From the IMG/VR virus record IMGVR_UViG_3300045988_074390: a DNA stretch of 15,398 bases, one strand, 5' to 3'. The notes beneath the pieces were generated by a model. The model saw nothing but the letters and a program-made list of their open reading frames with translations. It made no database searches and was not told the DNA's origin. Positions 3,713 through 15,398 of the stretch are shown here, piece by piece (within the stretch, counting starts at the first letter, position 1; every line of letters starts with the position of its first letter). This stretch comes from a virus. Position numbers and translations under genes: made by a program.

Positions 3713-3744
3713 TTGACTACATTTAATTGTTGTGTTATTATAAT
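3713..3744 (+). promoter_or_regulatory. Early-type promoter, copy B of the duplicated promoter
   Basis: TTGACT (3713-3718), 17-nt spacer, then TGT-TATTAT (3733-3741) overlapping TATAAT (3739-3744). The roughly 48-nt stretch 3711-3758 is an imperfect direct repeat of 3437-3487. Confidence 0.65.
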
Positions 3745-3810
3745 GTAATAAATAAAACATATTACATTGCAATTCACACTCAAAGAAACAGAAAAAAGGA
3801 GGAAAACAAG

Positions 3811-4110
3811 ATGTTTACAAGGACATTAGTCACAGCGGAGGTTTCTGTAGAAAGAATCTACAAGGACAAAGAGACAGGTGAAATCAAGAAAGATTGCTTT
3901 GAAGAGAAATTGTCAAACTGTAAGACAAGGGATAAAGCGGAAATCTTGATTGAAAAGCAGTACAAGGGAGACATTGTTTCCATATTAGACATTAAGTTTA
4001 AAGTGGAAAGACGCACAATGACAGAAGAGCAGTTTTTACTTAATTCAGACGTCAAGAACGAAAAAATTGTTACCGAAGCAGAGTTGCAGGACATGAAAAA
4101 GGAAGATTAA
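3811..4110 (+). CDS. Hypothetical early protein (99 aa); possible dsDNA-binding (p6-like) replication accessory protein, by size and position only
   Basis: The ATG at 3811 is preceded by AAGGAGGA. The longer ORF starting at 3727 would begin inside the promoter and has no SD. The protein is charged with an acidic C-terminus. No recognisable motif was found. Confidence 0.6.
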   Translation: MFTRTLVTAEVSVERIYKDKETGEIKKDCFEEKLSNCKTRDKAEILIEKQYKGDIVSILDIKFKVERRTMTEEQFLLNSDVKNEKIVTEAELQDMKKED

Positions 4111-4561: not shown

Positions 4562-4579
4562 ATGTTTCACGTGAAACAT
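4562..4579. promoter_or_regulatory. Perfect 18-bp palindrome ATGTTTCACGTGAAACAT, copy 1 (putative operator)
   Basis: Exact palindrome with a CACGTG core. It lies between the early terminator and the ATPase gene and overlaps the upstream in-frame ATG at 4578. Confidence 0.6.
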
Positions 4580-4595
4580 GAATGGAGGTGCTAAC

Positions 4596-5642
4596 ATGAT
4601 TGATGATGGTTATTATCATTGTGAGCGATTATTAACTATGAAAGATAAATACGGGAATACACCTGATATTTTTATTGTGGACGGCAACAGAACAGCGGGT
4701 AAAAGTTACTCTATTAAGTGTAGACAAGTCTCGGATTTTTTAAAAGATAAATACAGACCCGAAAATCAGTTTATCTATTTGTACCGCAATGTTGTTGATA
4801 TGAAGAACTGTGCCGACACTTATTTTGGAGATATTGCGGAAAAATTTGACGGTTATGTCATGACAGAAAAAAGTTTGATGCGTGGCGCGTTGGTGCAGTT
4901 ATTTATCAATGAAGAGCCATGCGGTTATTGTTTAGCTTTGTCGGTTGCGAGAAAGTATAAAAAAATGCGTGGGTTATTCGTCAATATCCGTTCTGTATTT
5001 TTTGACGAATATCAAGACGAAGATAATATATATTTGCCAAACGAAGTAAATAAATTACTGTCGTTACTTACAACTATCAGTTCGGGACATGGTAAACAGC
5101 ATAGGAGAGTTATGCTATATATGGCATCGAATACAGTCTCTTTGTTAAACCCTTACTATAGCGTGTTTGGTATCAATAAAATGTTAAAGAGAGACACCAA
5201 ATTTTTACGTGGTGATGGTTGGGTGTTTGAAAGAACTTATAATGAAAGCGCCTCAACAGCGTATAAGGAAAGTGCTATAGCAAGAGCTTTTCGTGGTGCT
5301 GAATACAACGAGTACGCCAGTGAAAACAAATATCTAAATGACAATGAATGTCTGATTGGGAAACCATCAGGGCAGTCACGTTATATTTGTACAATTAAGT
5401 ACAATGATAATCTATATAATGTAAGAAAATACGATGTGTGTCTATACGTGTCAACAGGTGCAGATGATAGTTTTCCTACCCGTATATGTTTTACAAAAAC
5501 CGATGTTATAGACAATACTGCTATTCGTGTCAACTCGACTCATTATATCGTTACGATGTTACGGGAATACTTTAACAGAGGTTTACTTTTGTTTGAAAAT
5601 TTGGAATGTAAGAACATGATATTTGATGTCATATCTTTTTAA
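4596..5642 (+). CDS. DNA encapsidation (packaging) ATPase, phi29 gp16-like
   Basis: Walker A is DGNRTAGKS and Walker B is SVFFDEYQDE. Other gp16-like blocks are present: QFIYLYR, YLPNEVNKLLSLL, ASNTVSLLNPYY. The start is set at ATG 4596, which has SD GGAGGTG 5 nt upstream. ATG 4578 has no SD and sits inside the palindrome. Confidence 0.9.
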   Translation: MIDDGYYHCERLLTMKDKYGNTPDIFIVDGNRTAGKSYSIKCRQVSDFLKDKYRPENQFIYLYRNVVDMKNCADTYFGDIAEKFDGYVMTEKSLMRGALVQLFINEEPCGYCLALSVARKYKKMRGLFVNIRSVFFDEYQDEDNIYLPNEVNKLLSLLTTISSGHGKQHRRVMLYMASNTVSLLNPYYSVFGINKMLKRDTKFLRGDGWVFERTYNESASTAYKESAIARAFRGAEYNEYASENKYLNDNECLIGKPSGQSRYICTIKYNDNLYNVRKYDVCLYVSTGADDSFPTRICFTKTDVIDNTAIRVNSTHYIVTMLREYFNRGLLLFENLECKNMIFDVISF

Positions 5643-8518: not shown

Positions 8519-9790
8519 ATGGCAGAAGCAACCAACGCGAATATTTTAAAAGCGGTTACACAGGAACTTTCTTTTGAGGTTCAGAATCATTTACCAACAG
8601 AGGTATCAGACAATTTACAGGCAGTGTATGACAACATTTTAAATTACGCTCCTGTAAGAAATGAGATTGTGCCATCACTCATTAACCGTATCGGCATGCA
8701 GACGGTGGACAGTATCGCGTGGAGAAATCCGTTAGCGCGATTTAAGAAAGAGCCAATGCGCTATGGAGAGACACACGAGGAAACTTATGTAAATATGTGC
8801 AAGGGTCGTGTCTATGATTCACAGGCAGATTTTAAATTTGCTTTTCAGCAATACCAGTCCTATATTATGAGCGTATTTCATAATGTAAATCTTGAAATCC
8901 AGTACCCTGTCACAGTGACTTATGACAACTTGAGAAAAGCATTCACAAGCGAGTATGGAATCCGCGACATGATTATGGCAAAAATGGAGAGCGCTATCAC
9001 AGGAGCGAACTGGGACGAATACCTTGCAATGCGTGATTTGATTAATGTCGGGTATGAAAAAGAGGTGCTTCCGGCAGTGACTGTTGACGCGATTGTAGAT
9101 GAAGCATCAGCGAAAAAGTTATTGATTGAGGTCAAAAGAGCAGTTGGAGAGTTTGGCTTCCCATTGCCGGAAAACAATCCAGCCGGAGCAACTTCTCATG
9201 CAATGCCGTCAAATCTAATTTGGATAACAACACCGGAAGTCAATGCACAGATTAGTGTTGACGCTTTAGCGTATGCGTTCCATATGGATAAGGCAGACGT
9301 AGCAGTTCAGACAGTGATTGTAGATAAATTTGCGAATAGTGCAATACAGGGCGTTCTTTGTGACGTGCGATTCTTCAATGTACGCGACCAGTTCAAAGAA
9401 ATGACTGACCAGAGATTGGCAAATGTGTTATCATGGAATTATTTCTATACACAGGTGGAAATGGTGAGCGCGAGCCCGTTCTACCCGATTCGTGTATTTA
9501 CAACGGATGCTGTCGTTGAAAAACCAACTTTAGGCGTCAAGGCAGGAACTTACACAGCAGGGCAGACACAGGAAGTAGAAGTAACTGTGACAGGTGATGC
9601 AGGCACATATCATCAGAATTTGGTGACTCTTGAAGTTGACAGCGGTGCAACCTCAGCAAAGACTTACGTTATCCCAGGGACACATTTACTTCACACAGGA
9701 GCGGACGAGACGGGAACGATTGTCTTAAAAGCAATTTACAGACCAGACGAGACTATCACAAAAACTGTAAATTTTACCAAACAGGGTTAG
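8519..9790 (+). CDS. Major capsid protein (423 aa) with a C-terminal Ig-like region
   Basis: Its position between scaffold and tail genes, its size, and a strand-rich C-terminus (VEVTVTGDAGTYHQNLVTLEVDSGATSAKTYVIPG...GTIVLKAIYRPDETITKTVNF) resemble BIG2-type decoration domains of gp8-like capsids. The family call is by synteny and composition. Confidence 0.8.
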   Translation: MAEATNANILKAVTQELSFEVQNHLPTEVSDNLQAVYDNILNYAPVRNEIVPSLINRIGMQTVDSIAWRNPLARFKKEPMRYGETHEETYVNMCKGRVYDSQADFKFAFQQYQSYIMSVFHNVNLEIQYPVTVTYDNLRKAFTSEYGIRDMIMAKMESAITGANWDEYLAMRDLINVGYEKEVLPAVTVDAIVDEASAKKLLIEVKRAVGEFGFPLPENNPAGATSHAMPSNLIWITTPEVNAQISVDALAYAFHMDKADVAVQTVIVDKFANSAIQGVLCDVRFFNVRDQFKEMTDQRLANVLSWNYFYTQVEMVSASPFYPIRVFTTDAVVEKPTLGVKAGTYTAGQTQEVEVTVTGDAGTYHQNLVTLEVDSGATSAKTYVIPGTHLLHTGADETGTIVLKAIYRPDETITKTVNFTKQG

Positions 9791-9830
9791 TTGAGTCGTT
9801 TAAATCTATAGATTTCAATGCAACTGACCC
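9769..9830 (+). promoter_or_regulatory. Candidate -1 programmed ribosomal frameshift signal (slippery heptamer plus stem-loop)
   Basis: A_AAT_TTT at 9769-9775 has zero-frame codons AAT and TTT. An 8-nt spacer follows. The 10-bp stem is 9784-9793 GGGTTAGTTG / 9821-9830 CAACTGACCC (one G-U pair), with a nested palindrome AAATCTA/TAGATTT at 9802-9815. Confidence 0.45.
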
Positions 9831-9837
9831 TTTAGTC

Positions 9838-10119
9838 ATGAGCGCGGGTATTGCTGATGGTATTGGTATTCACAATAATACAAACAAAGGTATACCAATA
9901 GATTTAATTAAAAAAGGATATTTCACCAATGTAAAAAATGAAGATGGGACTAGATTGCTCGTAGACAAACAACGGTCAAGTGTATACGATGTATATAAAA
10001 ATTATATAGCCTTTGACGCTTGTGATAAAATACAAACGGTTAACACGTATCTTGAATTAATATTAATTAATGATACTATATTAAGAACCACATCGGTTAT
10101 AGAGGTGATAGTAAAGTGA
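9838..10119 (+). CDS. Small structural ORF (93 aa from ATG 9838), possibly expressed as a 114-aa -1 frameshift extension of the capsid protein (from 9775)
   Basis: It is the only gene without an SD. Its frame is open back to 9640, across the capsid 3' end. Its TGA overlaps the GTG start of the tail-knob gene (GTGA at 10116-10119), which suggests translational coupling. Confidence 0.55.
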   Translation: MSAGIADGIGIHNNTNKGIPIDLIKKGYFTNVKNEDGTRLLVDKQRSSVYDVYKNYIAFDACDKIQTVNTYLELILINDTILRTTSVIEVIVK

Positions 10120-11732
10120 TAAATTTACCAACACAGGGAGGGGTTGCACCACGCAACCCCGAAACAAAATTAAGGTTATACAGTGGTGTGCCATGGTCTG
10201 ATGAATATGAACACGTTAGACTATACAACTCGAAAGAAGATTTACTAAATCATTTAGAGTTGTATCGTAAACATATCAATGGTGTTGATTTGTCGCACCT
10301 TGCACCTATTAAACTAGGAAATTATGATATCCGTGTGCCGTTCACAGAAATGAAAGCGCTTAATCTCAATTATTTAGCTTTTCAGAATAGTGGGATATCT
10401 AACGAATGGGTGTTTTGCTTTATTGACTCCATCGAATGGCTATCAGAAAAAACAACTAGAATCAATTTTTCTTTAGACGTTTTTCAGAATAACTTCTATG
10501 ATGCAAATATCAAGCCATGCTTTGTTGAGTATCATCACATTCCAAGGAGTAAAGACGAGATAGGAGCAAATCTAACACCTGTTAATATTGAAACGGGTGA
10601 AACAATTGTATCACGACACAAAAAATTAGACTTAACGCCAACAGATTGTTGCGCTTTTGTCACAAGAGGAACAGCAGAACAAAGTTGGTTCGAGGGACGT
10701 GTGGAAAATGGTGTTTACTGTTGGGGCAGTATTGGGCACTATGATGTAACTACAGAAGATGGTCTGAAAGGAATCAACACATTATTGGAAGATTACAACA
10801 ACCAAGGAGCGCAAGATGCAGTCATAGGATTGTTCATGTCCCCTAAATTATGTACTCTTGCTTTAGGTGGGAAAGAGATAAAGCCTAAAATAACAATCAT
10901 GCAGATTTCTGACAACGTCTTTGAGGGATATAAACCAAAAAATAAAAAGTTATATTCATATCCATGGCTGTTTTGTTTGGCAGATAATAACCAAGGAAAC
11001 ACACACATCTACAGATATGAATACAGTTACAATCGTGATAAATCTCTTGAGTTTGACAGCTACGGAACAATCGCAACACTACCGCAAGTCTTGACAACAC
11101 CTAAAAACTACAAGACACGCGAAGAATTAGGTCATGGGTTAATGAATGAAGCACTTATTAACTCTTCATTTCCTATGTGTTCGTTCTCCTCAGACACTTA
11201 TCGAGCGTGGTTAGCGCAAAACAAAAGTTCTATAGCACTATCGCAAGTTCACACTGCCGTAGATGCTACCATGGGAACAGGCACAGCAATAGCAGGGTTA
11301 GCAGGAGGAAGCTTACAAGGAGGTCTTAACGGACTAGGCAAAACAACGAATGCTTTTTGGGACGCTCTTGGAATGTTAGCAAATCAGACAGACAGAGCGA
11401 GAAACGCTGGAGTGACACACGGAAAAGCATTATCCGAAAATGTGTTGACAGGTATTAAAGAGTGTGGTGTTGACTTCTATGAAATGTCATGTAAAAAACA
11501 ATTTGCAGAAATGGCAGACAGTTTTTTTGAACAGTTCGGTTATCCAATTAATAAAATCGCTACCCCTTATTTACACTCAAGAGCCTACTGGAATTATGTA
11601 AAAACATCTCATTGTGGCTTTACTGGTGATATTGATTTAGACCAATTGAAAAAACTGAGAAATATATTTGACAACGGCGTGACTTTGTGGCATACTGATG
11701 ACATAGGGAATTATGGTTTATTGAATAACTAA
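10116..11732 (+). CDS. Tail knob / distal tube protein, phi29 gp9-like (538 aa, GTG start)
   Basis: SD AGAGGTGA is present. The N-terminal pattern matches gp9: LRLYSGVPWSDEYEHVRLYNSKEDLLNHL, YLAFQNSGISNEWVFCFIDSIEWLSEKTTRINFSLDVFQ (phi29 has ...YIMFQNADYGNKWFYAFVTELEFKN...FEIDVLQTW). Confidence 0.85.
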   Translation: MINLPTQGGVAPRNPETKLRLYSGVPWSDEYEHVRLYNSKEDLLNHLELYRKHINGVDLSHLAPIKLGNYDIRVPFTEMKALNLNYLAFQNSGISNEWVFCFIDSIEWLSEKTTRINFSLDVFQNNFYDANIKPCFVEYHHIPRSKDEIGANLTPVNIETGETIVSRHKKLDLTPTDCCAFVTRGTAEQSWFEGRVENGVYCWGSIGHYDVTTEDGLKGINTLLEDYNNQGAQDAVIGLFMSPKLCTLALGGKEIKPKITIMQISDNVFEGYKPKNKKLYSYPWLFCLADNNQGNTHIYRYEYSYNRDKSLEFDSYGTIATLPQVLTTPKNYKTREELGHGLMNEALINSSFPMCSFSSDTYRAWLAQNKSSIALSQVHTAVDATMGTGTAIAGLAGGSLQGGLNGLGKTTNAFWDALGMLANQTDRARNAGVTHGKALSENVLTGIKECGVDFYEMSCKKQFAEMADSFFEQFGYPINKIATPYLHSRAYWNYVKTSHCGFTGDIDLDQLKKLRNIFDNGVTLWHTDDIGNYGLLNN

Positions 11733-11747
11733 AGGAGGTGTATATAA

Positions 11748-12647
11748 GTGAAAAATCCGTTACGAGTTTTCGAACTAAATATTAATAAAAAGAAAAACAG
11801 TGATTTTGACATAATAAAATCTATCTTTTTTTATGATATTTTCGATATCTTTGTAAACAGGTATCAATGGCATAATCTACCCGAAGAAATTCTACCGATG
11901 TACATTGAACAAACCTTATTTTGGCATGGCTTGGGTGTATTCATCAAGGACAATATTGCAGGATATGCTTTCATGAATGTTTCATTATCGGGTTTACCAG
12001 ATATTTATAATATTCCTCAAGACAGAATCGCTTATACTGCAAATGGGTACATTAAAGAATACGGTAAAGAAAACAGTTGTATCTTATGGAATAACTACTC
12101 AACTATGCCGTATTACTATAAAGCATTGATGTATGCCGATGCAATGGCTAATACTTGGAAAACAAAGGGTATTAATATGTATGCACAGCGTACACCTGTT
12201 GCCCTTTCCGCATCAGACAATGAAAAAATGAGTTTTGAAATACTGGGAGAAATGTACGATAATTATTTACCTGTATTAAAAGTTTCTGATTCGCTAAACT
12301 TGAAAGACATCAAAGCACTGGACATGGGAGCGCCTTACATTGTAGATAAATGCGAACAGGAATTGAGAGATTTATGGTCGCAAGTGTTAACGTCTTTAGG
12401 ATATGAGAGTAACCCAGTGGAAAAAGGGGAACGCCTTGTCACAGGTGAGACAGCAGGTAATAACGGACAGGTTGAAGCAAACCGAAATGTTGGTCTTACA
12501 TTAAGAAGAAGATGTGCAAATGCTATCAATGAGTTATGGAATCTTAATGTAACGGTAGACTTCAATAGTGAATTGCCTACTATGCTAAATGGTTACATAC
12601 CCGACAAGTATATGCAAAAAGGGAAAGAGGGTGACGAGATTGAGTAA
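11748..12647 (+). CDS. Portal / upper collar connector protein, phi29 gp10-like (299 aa, GTG start)
   Basis: SD AGGAGGTG is present. Blocks recalled from phi29 gp10 are present: WHNLPEEILPMYIEQTLFWHG, NMYAQRTPVAL (NQNAQKTPVLI), GAPYIVDKC (DAPYVVDKL), KGERLVTGET (KKERMVTDEV), INELWNLNVTVDF (INELYGLNVKVKF). Confidence 0.92.
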   Translation: MKNPLRVFELNINKKKNSDFDIIKSIFFYDIFDIFVNRYQWHNLPEEILPMYIEQTLFWHGLGVFIKDNIAGYAFMNVSLSGLPDIYNIPQDRIAYTANGYIKEYGKENSCILWNNYSTMPYYYKALMYADAMANTWKTKGINMYAQRTPVALSASDNEKMSFEILGEMYDNYLPVLKVSDSLNLKDIKALDMGAPYIVDKCEQELRDLWSQVLTSLGYESNPVEKGERLVTGETAGNNGQVEANRNVGLTLRRRCANAINELWNLNVTVDFNSELPTMLNGYIPDKYMQKGKEGDEIE

Positions 12648-15288: not shown

Positions 15289-15398
15289 TTGTTTCTATAA
15301 TTATAATACCACAGGTCAGATTATTTGTCAAGTATTTTTTCGTGCTTTTTTAATCAAATGGGGGACGTGTTCTCATTGGGAATAACGAAAGCCCTCTC
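15289..15398. repeat. Right inverted terminal repeat (110 bp, perfect)
   Basis: Exact reverse complement of 1-110, ending at the last base of the window. Confidence 0.97.
15300..15331 (-). promoter_or_regulatory. Early promoter inside the right ITR (mirror of 68-99)
   Basis: The sequence is identical to the left ITR promoter by ITR symmetry. On the minus strand, TTGACA is 15326-15331 and TATTAT is 15303-15308. Confidence 0.7.

Follow-up and report, generated by a model that had tools for sequence, protein, structure and literature searches.

What is made from the 93-residue open reading frame (ORF) that lies between the major capsid protein gene and the tail-knob gene of a phi29-like podophage? 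The phage is IMG/VR record IMGVR_UViG_3300045988_074390, whose complete genome of 15,398 bp (G+C content 36%) was analysed as a whole and is referred to here as the window. Gene callers treat this frame (ORF93) as an independent 'hypothetical protein' that starts at an ATG at position 9838. An earlier note on this DNA, made from the letters alone, had proposed that a -1 frameshift fuses the capsid protein to this ORF, which has no Shine-Dalgarno (SD) sequence. Our analysis supports the proposal, mainly through comparative evidence. Judged from sequence, the probability that the 3' end of the major capsid gene is a site of -1 programmed ribosomal frameshifting is roughly 0.85.

The proposed course of events is as follows. 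Most ribosomes would read AAT TTT ACC AAA CAG GGT TAG and release the ordinary capsid protein of 423 residues. A minority would meet a downstream hairpin while tRNA-Asn and tRNA-Phe sit on AAU UUU, and would slip back one base onto AAA UUU, with the P-site tRNA-Asn re-pairing from AAU to AAA and the A-site tRNA-Phe from UUU to UUU. The slipped ribosomes would then pass the capsid stop in the -1 frame and add 114 residues, giving a capsid variant of 533 residues. The added part is predicted to be an immunoglobulin-like (Ig-like) sandwich. It would directly follow the capsid's own surface-exposed C-terminal Ig-like domain and would therefore be displayed outside, on a subset of the subunits, as a dispensable and fast-evolving decoration. 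The extension is probably a module for adhesion or for binding the host surface or the environment. We infer slippage in vivo and its efficiency, as well as virion incorporation and the function of the domain, from the features described below.

A slippery heptamer and a predicted hairpin in the window

The zero-frame codons GTA AAT TTT ACC near the end of the capsid gene contain the heptamer A_AAT_TTT, which fits the pattern X_XXY_YYZ. It is followed, after a short spacer, by a predicted hairpin of three stems (Table 1). The outer stem (9783-9793 / 9821-9831) has 11 bp and encloses the capsid TAG, the middle stem pairs 9797-9800 with 9817-9820, and the apical stem of 5 bp (9802-9806 / 9811-9815) is formed by a palindrome at 9802-9815. 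Folding of positions 9776-9840 with RNAfold gave a free energy of -19.9 kcal/mol and z = -4.69, and none of 200 shuffled sequences was as stable. The frame of the ATG at 9838 is -1 relative to the capsid gene and is open from 9640, directly after a TGA at 9637-9639. The heptamer at 9769 is unique in the window, as it is followed by 114 open codons in the -1 frame, while the runner-up site is followed by 36.

Most of this geometry had been read correctly in the earlier note. The codon check bears out the heptamer in the zero frame, the -1 frame is open back to 9640 as described, and the nested palindrome is present. The stem of 10 bp with one G-U pair (9784-9793 / 9821-9830) is also there, and grows by one pair to the 11 bp given above, which leaves a spacer of 7 rather than 8 nucleotides (nt). 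The capsid variant of about 533 residues (419 + 114) was recomputed with the same result; its predicted mass is 59.6 kDa, against 47.3 kDa for the capsid protein. The predicted junction reads ...KTVNF-YQTGLVESFK, and the trans-frame junction peptide would be TVNFYQTGLVESFK, with equivalents in other lineages such as TVNFYETDVINSIK.

Table 1. Coordinates of the features at the capsid-knob junction of the window.
Feature	Position	Strand	Remarks
Major capsid protein gene	8519..9790	+	423 aa, 47.3 kDa; TAG 9788-9790; zero frame
Overlap zone, -1 frame open inside the capsid gene	9640..9790	+	Frame analysis
Candidate slippery heptamer A_AAT_TTT	9769..9775	+	Zero-frame codons AAT TTT
Predicted -1 frame extension	9775..10119	+	114 codons and TGA 10117-10119; fused after capsid F419
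Spacer between heptamer and stem	9776..9782	+	7 nt; RNA folding
Predicted stimulatory hairpin	9783..9831	+	Three stems; RNAfold
ATG annotated by gene callers as start of a 93-aa 'hypothetical protein'	9838..9840	+	SD absent
Tail-knob SD, GAGGTGA	10102..10108	+	Inside invariant Glu-Val codons near the end of the extension
Tail-knob (gp9-like) gene	10116..11732	+	GTG start; PF20934, PF16838; phrog_2248

Other roles for the signal were also considered. A scan of the locus for Rfam families, terminator-like sites and an excess of promoters found none, and a terminator or attenuator function of the hairpin was dropped, given that Rfam had no match and that neither a terminator-like nor a convincing promoter-like site is present there. 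Transcriptional slippage was rejected, since four T in a row are too few for it.

The simplest competing explanation is the annotation itself, namely that ORF93 is an ordinary separate gene read from the ATG at 9838, for example by reinitiation 48 nt past the capsid TAG, with a free protein of 10.4 kDa starting MSAGIADG as its product. This is how gene callers annotate it. However, no SD precedes it, as the earlier note had remarked. The note's further statement, that AGGAGG-type SDs stand in front of all other genes, holds only approximately. Fourteen of the 19 listed starts have an SD match of at least 6 nt, with TAAGGGGGT in front of the capsid gene, but no SD precedes 3727, 4578 or 12589.

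Conservation in relatives and the predicted fold

Relatives of the window phage come from human-gut metagenomes. Retrieval anchored on the capsid gene yielded 80 IMG/VR contigs with capsids 88-99.5% identical. A further set, L081, L083-L090, L120, L126 and L132, came from searches with proteins and from looking up contigs, for a later total of about 90 contigs. Roughly 67 of the 80 IMG/VR contigs have no insert, and their tail-knob gene starts 16-22 nt past the capsid stop, behind a GGAGGT SD. Nine IMG/VR contigs contain a full insert of 319-340 nt (L001, L004, L006, L007, L008, L010, L012, L069 and L079). Four more have part of it: in L003 only the start of the insert is visible before the contig ends, L060 has the same junction sequence as L061 and ends before the tail knob, L061 has an insert shortened in frame, and L015 (5270-5393) has a remnant that lost 217 nt and in which the frame is broken.

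In all of the approximately 27 insert-bearing contigs, including all 10 IMG/VR relatives whose insert ORF is intact, this ORF reads in the -1 frame and stays open where it overlaps the capsid gene. Upstream of the heptamer this open zone shrinks to about 18 nt in L069 (open from 5233) and L088 (from 2965); in L083 it begins at 2950. Since the -1 frame opens so close to the heptamer in L069 and L088, the shift site is confined to about 12 codons. In seven IMG/VR lineages (L001, L004, L006, L007, L008, L012 and L069) the ORF has no ATG at all, and the first GTG or TTG sits deep in conserved sequence, at differing positions. Database gene calls for the family are fragments of 34-120 residues with arbitrary GTG, TTG or ATG starts (VINSIK..., MDRIKSIDY..., MFIPNDL... 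and MYFTNVK... are examples). Such scattered starts fit a frameshift extension, not a cistron.

The heptamer AAATTTT is found in about 20 of the 27 insert-bearing contigs, made up of 18 of 23 in a formal count together with L120 and L126. A slippery heptamer in frame near the capsid end was present in 18/23 insert-bearing loci versus 13/67 loci without the insert (Fisher P = 7e-7, uncorrected for phylogeny). The insert-less loci mostly have AGT TTC, AAT TTC or AAT TAC at the heptamer codons. L090 and L126 have AAATTTT plus G_AAA_AAG or A_AAA_AAG. A dnaX-like G/A_AAA_AAG site lies just before the capsid stop in L061, L090 and L126.

The predicted stem is conserved in position rather than in sequence. 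In nearly all lineages a helix starts 5-10 nt past the heptamer, while its arms differ between lineages (AGGGTTAGTTG/CAACTGACCCT, AGATGTAAT/GTTACATCT, ACAGTCGTAGTT/AATTACGACTGT, GCTTGATAT/ATATCAAGC and ACAGAGTTAGTGGA/TTCACTGACTCTGT). Helices constrained to this position exceeded those of dinucleotide shuffles in 7/10 sequences, with P from 0.028 down to <0.0005. Nine stem positions show two or three canonical pair types among nine lineages. For a formal count of pairs we used an ungapped alignment of nine sequences, anchored on the heptamer and not fitted to the structure. In this alignment 81% of the cells were paired, versus 27-44% when the partner was slid by 1-3 columns. Five pairs, with 15 cells, had changed on both sides, and none of 500 shuffles reached either the covariation score or the paired fraction. 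By this count the stem covaries, with compensatory pairs across lineages. The fate of heptamer, stem and open -1 frame in relatives, on which the earlier note had made its proposal depend, thus came out in favour of the frameshift.

A second alternative does without slippage but frees the protein from the ATG. Translation might begin near the capsid stop at a non-canonical codon (ATT, ATA, GTG or TTG without an SD) or by termination-coupled reinitiation. Suitable codons do exist in some contigs: a GTG overlaps the capsid stop in L001, and TTG or GTG codons near the junction of L083, L087, L088 and L132 are used by gene callers. Yet these codons lie at differing positions, none has an SD, and many lineages have no such codon, including the window, where the first ATG, GTG or TTG after 9640 is the ATG at 9838. 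Nor would non-canonical initiation explain why AAATTTT is enriched, why the phase is strictly -1 and why the hairpin lies 5-10 nt past the heptamer. We regard it as very unlikely.

We then compared the frames of the sequence that precedes the ATG at 9838. The family alignment opens at the slip site, with Y-x-T-x-[LV]-[VI]-x-S-[FI]-K-S-I-[DE]-[FY]. A three-frame test of the 33 nt (11 codons) right after the capsid stop in nine lineages, scored by BLOSUM62 per residue and by the number of stops, gave a mean of +2.06 and no stops for the -1 frame, +0.26 and 11 stops for the 0 frame, and -0.53 and 20 stops for the +1 frame. On this evidence the stretch upstream of the ATG is translated in the -1 frame.

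The predicted structure includes the same residues. An AlphaFold2 model of the 114 residues, built with 13 aligned sequences, is an all-beta sandwich with a mean predicted local distance difference test (pLDDT) of 92.8 and a predicted template modelling score (pTM) of 0.84. Considering that a helix at residues 3-8 and strands at 12-14 and 20-22 lie before the ATG, the residues encoded there appear integral to the predicted fold. The top Foldseek neighbours were Ig V-set, Siglec, Rib and macroglobulin domains, with template modelling (TM) scores of only 0.41-0.55 and E-values of about 1e-3. The extension is predicted to be a beta-sandwich, and in view of these modest TM-scores we call it Ig-like with caution.

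These results bear directly on the separate-gene explanation. A product starting at the ATG would miss the helix and two strands, and would discard 21 upstream residues that are conserved as protein and form part of the predicted fold. In its favour, the ATG occurs both in the window and in the five relatives closest in extension type (L081, L083, L084, L085 and L086). Other lineages, however, have no ATG or carry I, L or F in that column. The ATG at 9838 is most likely an internal methionine, residue 22 of the extension, situated in a beta strand. In the window, Met22 is most simply seen as a hydrophobic core residue, not a start, and we give the separate gene very little credence.

Several observations nevertheless weigh against the frameshift, or against parts of it. 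In-frame X_XXY_YYZ motifs with Y = A or T number 45 per 4566 codons in the window (about 1%), and since they are this frequent in a genome of 36% GC, the heptamer alone means little. Nor is the heptamer invariant: the exceptions in the formal count were L060, L061, L079, L083 and L086, and L132, found later, is another. Three of these keep only the A-site T_TTT (L079 A_GAT_TTT, L083 A_ACT_TTT and L086 A_ATT_TTT), and L120, a sister of L079, has the canonical AAATTTT. An imperfect X_XX is tolerated in known sites, such as G_GUU_UUC in T7 (PMC5009743). L060 and L061 have lost the heptamer and have G_AAA_AAG 6 nt downstream instead. With AAATTGT (A_AAT_TGT, 2498-2504), L132 is the only contig without an obvious slippery A site. 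Codon periodicity, tested by column entropy, did not reach significance, in part because a one-codon indel put the alignment out of register, and the helix is weak in L069, L079 and L089. The ATG is kept in the window's subclade, where some separate initiation may occur. Finally, the Ig-like fold is a predicted model and has no Pfam family match.

The change in L132 destroys A-site re-pairing and at the same time creates a TTG in the -1 frame, with the downstream hairpin intact at -13.9 kcal/mol. It may be an artefact of assembly, or it may mean that expression was lost or that initiation moved to the TTG.

An orphan domain and its evolution

We found no match for the extension in Pfam (E <= 0.01; including the I-set, FN3 and Big_2 families), in PHROGs or among PDB sequences, and none by tblastn against phages. 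A single-sequence scan of IMG/VR with ORF93 also found no relative, the homologues being too diverged and recovered only through the capsid-anchored loci. A profile scan of IMG/VR re-found known contigs only. Of 32 matches to a DNA pattern in metagenomes, six were true relatives and the remainder were due to chance. Searches with hidden Markov models (HMMs) gave 14 clusters in a set of 5.8 billion proteins and about 20 in a set of 1.84 billion representatives. Every one consists of short ORFs beside phi29-type capsid genes; these exhaustive searches found no in-frame fusion of the extension to a capsid. Weak matches to three large repetitive proteins were judged compositional after a Pfam check and set aside. 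By these searches, the extension is an orphan family without a detectable sequence relative outside this phage clade.

The carrier of the extension is better known. The capsid protein belongs to PF25622 (Phi29_MCP; E 6e-79, residues 10-328) and to phrog_2006, and its residues 8-405 align with phi29 gp8 (PDB 6qvk, E 1.5e-36). We take the gp8 region reached by this alignment to be the external BIG2 domain known from the gp8 structure. By its alignments the capsid is a phi29-type HK97-fold body with a C-terminal domain matching the surface BIG2 region of gp8. Since the capsid C-terminus aligns into this external part, the extension, which would begin at residue 420, should project outward.

The extension evolves much faster than its neighbours. 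In median pairwise identity the extension reached 46%, the capsid 94% and the N-terminus of the tail knob 92%. The ratio of nonsynonymous to synonymous substitution rates (dN/dS) was about 0.4 for the extension versus 0.035 for the capsid. The extension thus appears to be constrained (dN/dS <1), approximately ten times less than the capsid.

These values also bear on a third alternative, that the insert is a decaying, non-expressed remnant whose signals are leftovers or due to chance. Several facts are in line with decay. Most relatives have no insert, the heptamer has changed at several loci, and there are deletions, one in L015 that breaks the frame and large ones in L061 and L126 that preserve it. 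Full-length copies, on the other hand, keep an open frame of 110-119 codons at 37-74% pairwise identity with the above dN/dS, and they keep the invariant motifs NNTN, CDKxQ and LI[ND] along with a confidently predicted fold. There is only a slight chance that the insert is such a remnant. The in-frame deletions in L061 (4177-4359) and L126 leave 61 and 52 residues, respectively, with the N- and C-terminal strands kept. Together with L015 these are three independent deletion derivatives of the extension. Considering that the extension is often absent, being patchily distributed among IMG/VR relatives with near-identical capsids, and that it has deletion derivatives, we suggest that it is dispensable.

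Within the window's extension type, synonymous divergence (dS) of the extension is about 0.3, far under the 0.8-2.0 of the capsid. Between extension types, by contrast, the extensions are 37-56% identical and the capsids 89-99.8%; L001 and the window share 99.5% of capsid residues but only 41% of the extension. The low dS of the extension and the comparison with L001 suggest recombinational exchange of the module. In the first 150 residues of the tail knob (window 10116-10565 versus L001-L080) we observed two allelic classes, approximately 81-84% and 88-99% identical, that are independent of capsid identity and of insert presence; L001, for instance, has a knob identity of 83%. This indicates mosaic recombination around the capsid-knob junction.

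The dS values and the contrast in identity between extension types led us to a broader and more tentative idea. The extension could be a mobile, hypervariable 'capsid display cassette', an orphan Ig-like adhesin that travels with its own frameshift signal. It would be exchanged by recombination among otherwise near-identical phi29-like gut phages, and the head would display it in substoichiometric amounts. Diversifying pressure on the cassette would come from mucus, host-surface or immune ligands, and its slip site would turn over between A_AAU_UUU and G/A_AAA_AAG. We consider this possible but rather doubtful.

Known counterparts and neighbouring genes

Fraser et al. in 2006 reportedly described Ig-like extensions of phage structural proteins that are made by frameshifting. 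Frameshifting has independently added C-terminal Ig-like domains to various phage structural proteins, and mobile Ig-like modules landing out of frame have been proposed as their origin (Atkins et al. 2016, PMC5009743). On major coat proteins this happens by a -1 shift in T3, Lactobacillus phage A2 and Listeria phages A118 and A500, and by a +1 shift in PSA (PMC5009743). Like T3 10A/10B, A2 gp5A/gp5B and the A118 and A500 proteins, the window's locus would combine a -1 shift a few codons before the capsid stop with two capsid species and a (here predicted) Ig-like extension. Unlike them, it belongs to a phi29-type podophage with protein-primed replication, uses the heptamer A_AAU_UUU and adds an orphan domain outside the I-set, FN3 and Big_2 families, its products being predicted from sequence.

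The earlier note had compared the locus with T7 10A/10B. Both would have a -1 shift near the capsid end, a U-rich site (G_GUU_UUC in T7) and an A-site Phe, and the minor capsid species of T7 is dispensable and is used for display. The T7 extension, however, is not Ig-like, and its site has an imperfect X_XX and a distant 3' element instead of an adjacent hairpin (PMC5009743). There is no homology of capsid or extension, the window's capsid being a Phi29_MCP. The T7 comparison therefore holds as a functional analogy only, and T3, A2, A118 and A500 are closer.

Two further systems resemble the locus in part. The phi29 head fibre, encoded by gene 8.5, occupies the same slot between the capsid (8) and tail-knob (9) genes in the same virus group, and is likewise a dispensable decoration of the capsid surface. 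Yet gp8.5, which assembles into trimeric fibres, is translated from the start of a gene of its own, whereas here a covalent fusion by recoding is predicted and a ribosome-binding site (RBS) is absent. No PHROG, Pfam or PDB sequence match links the extension to gp8.5. In SPP1 gp17.1* and Listeria phage tail proteins, too, some copies of a polymeric structural protein receive a surface Ig-like or FN3 module through recoding, but those are tail rather than capsid proteins and the shift is +1 (PMC5009743).

A full-text literature search turned up no account of frameshifting in the capsid genes of phi29-like or Salasmaviridae phages. Our results support the view that this case matches the known class in mechanism, position and consequence, and that the phi29-type lineage, the heptamer and the orphan domain set it apart. 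The mechanism itself is textbook and no conceptual surprise. Its recognition does correct a systematic annotation error, as the unrelated-looking 'hypothetical proteins' of 34-120 residues in public databases most likely represent the C-terminal part of another form of the capsid protein. Capsid assembly and DNA packaging are, moreover, processes for which phi29-like podophages serve as a major model. Near-identical genomes that have the extension complete, shortened by deletions or not at all, or that differ in the slip site, amount to a natural experiment, which could reveal the role of a substoichiometric surface Ig-like domain in a human-gut phage, for example in adherence to mucus or host. 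The site would also be suited to low-copy capsid display, as with gene 10B of T7 and K1F (PMC13370021).

At its distal end the extension meets the tail-knob gene. As the earlier note had pointed out, the TGA of the -1 frame overlaps the knob's GTG (GTGA). The translational coupling suggested on this basis was rejected as unnecessary, since the knob gene is preceded by an SD of its own, and relatives without the insert manage with an SD only, GGAGGT at an equal distance from the knob start. Extension residues E110 and V111 are invariant across the family, and the GAGGT encoding this Glu-Val pair doubles as the knob SD. This accounts for the invariance and places the site under a dual constraint, as coding sequence and as RBS.

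The window begins and ends with a perfect 110-bp inverted terminal repeat (1-110 and 15289-15398; GAGAGGGCTTTCGTTATTCC...), from which we conclude that this linear genome is complete and belongs to the protein-primed, phi29-like type. In phi29 itself the terminal repeat is short, and that of the window is much longer. Genes named through Pfam and PHROGs include a protein-primed type-B DNA polymerase (PF03175), the gp16 packaging ATPase (PF05894), a scaffold-like protein and a connector (phrog_2038). A blastn search of GenBank phages with positions 8519-11732 found no nucleotide match, and the nearest cultured capsids are approximately 30% identical. In the cultured distant gut relatives Hungatella CH17P1 and Clostridium CI461P1, the capsid gene leads directly to the knob gene with nothing between them.

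Two other regions raise questions about starts. The TTG-initiated ORF at 3727-4110 and the gp16 packaging ATPase gene (4578-5642) have no recognisable SD, and the start at 3727 is doubtful. The lower-collar-like ORF is listed from the ATG at 12589, which has no SD and gives a 59-nt overlap with the connector gene. In the same frame, 5 nt past GAGGGTGA (12627-12634), there is a TTG at 12640 that overlaps the connector stop. To judge from this arrangement, the TTG is probably the real start, and gene calls for the lower-collar-like protein in relatives vary accordingly, from 233 to 250 residues.

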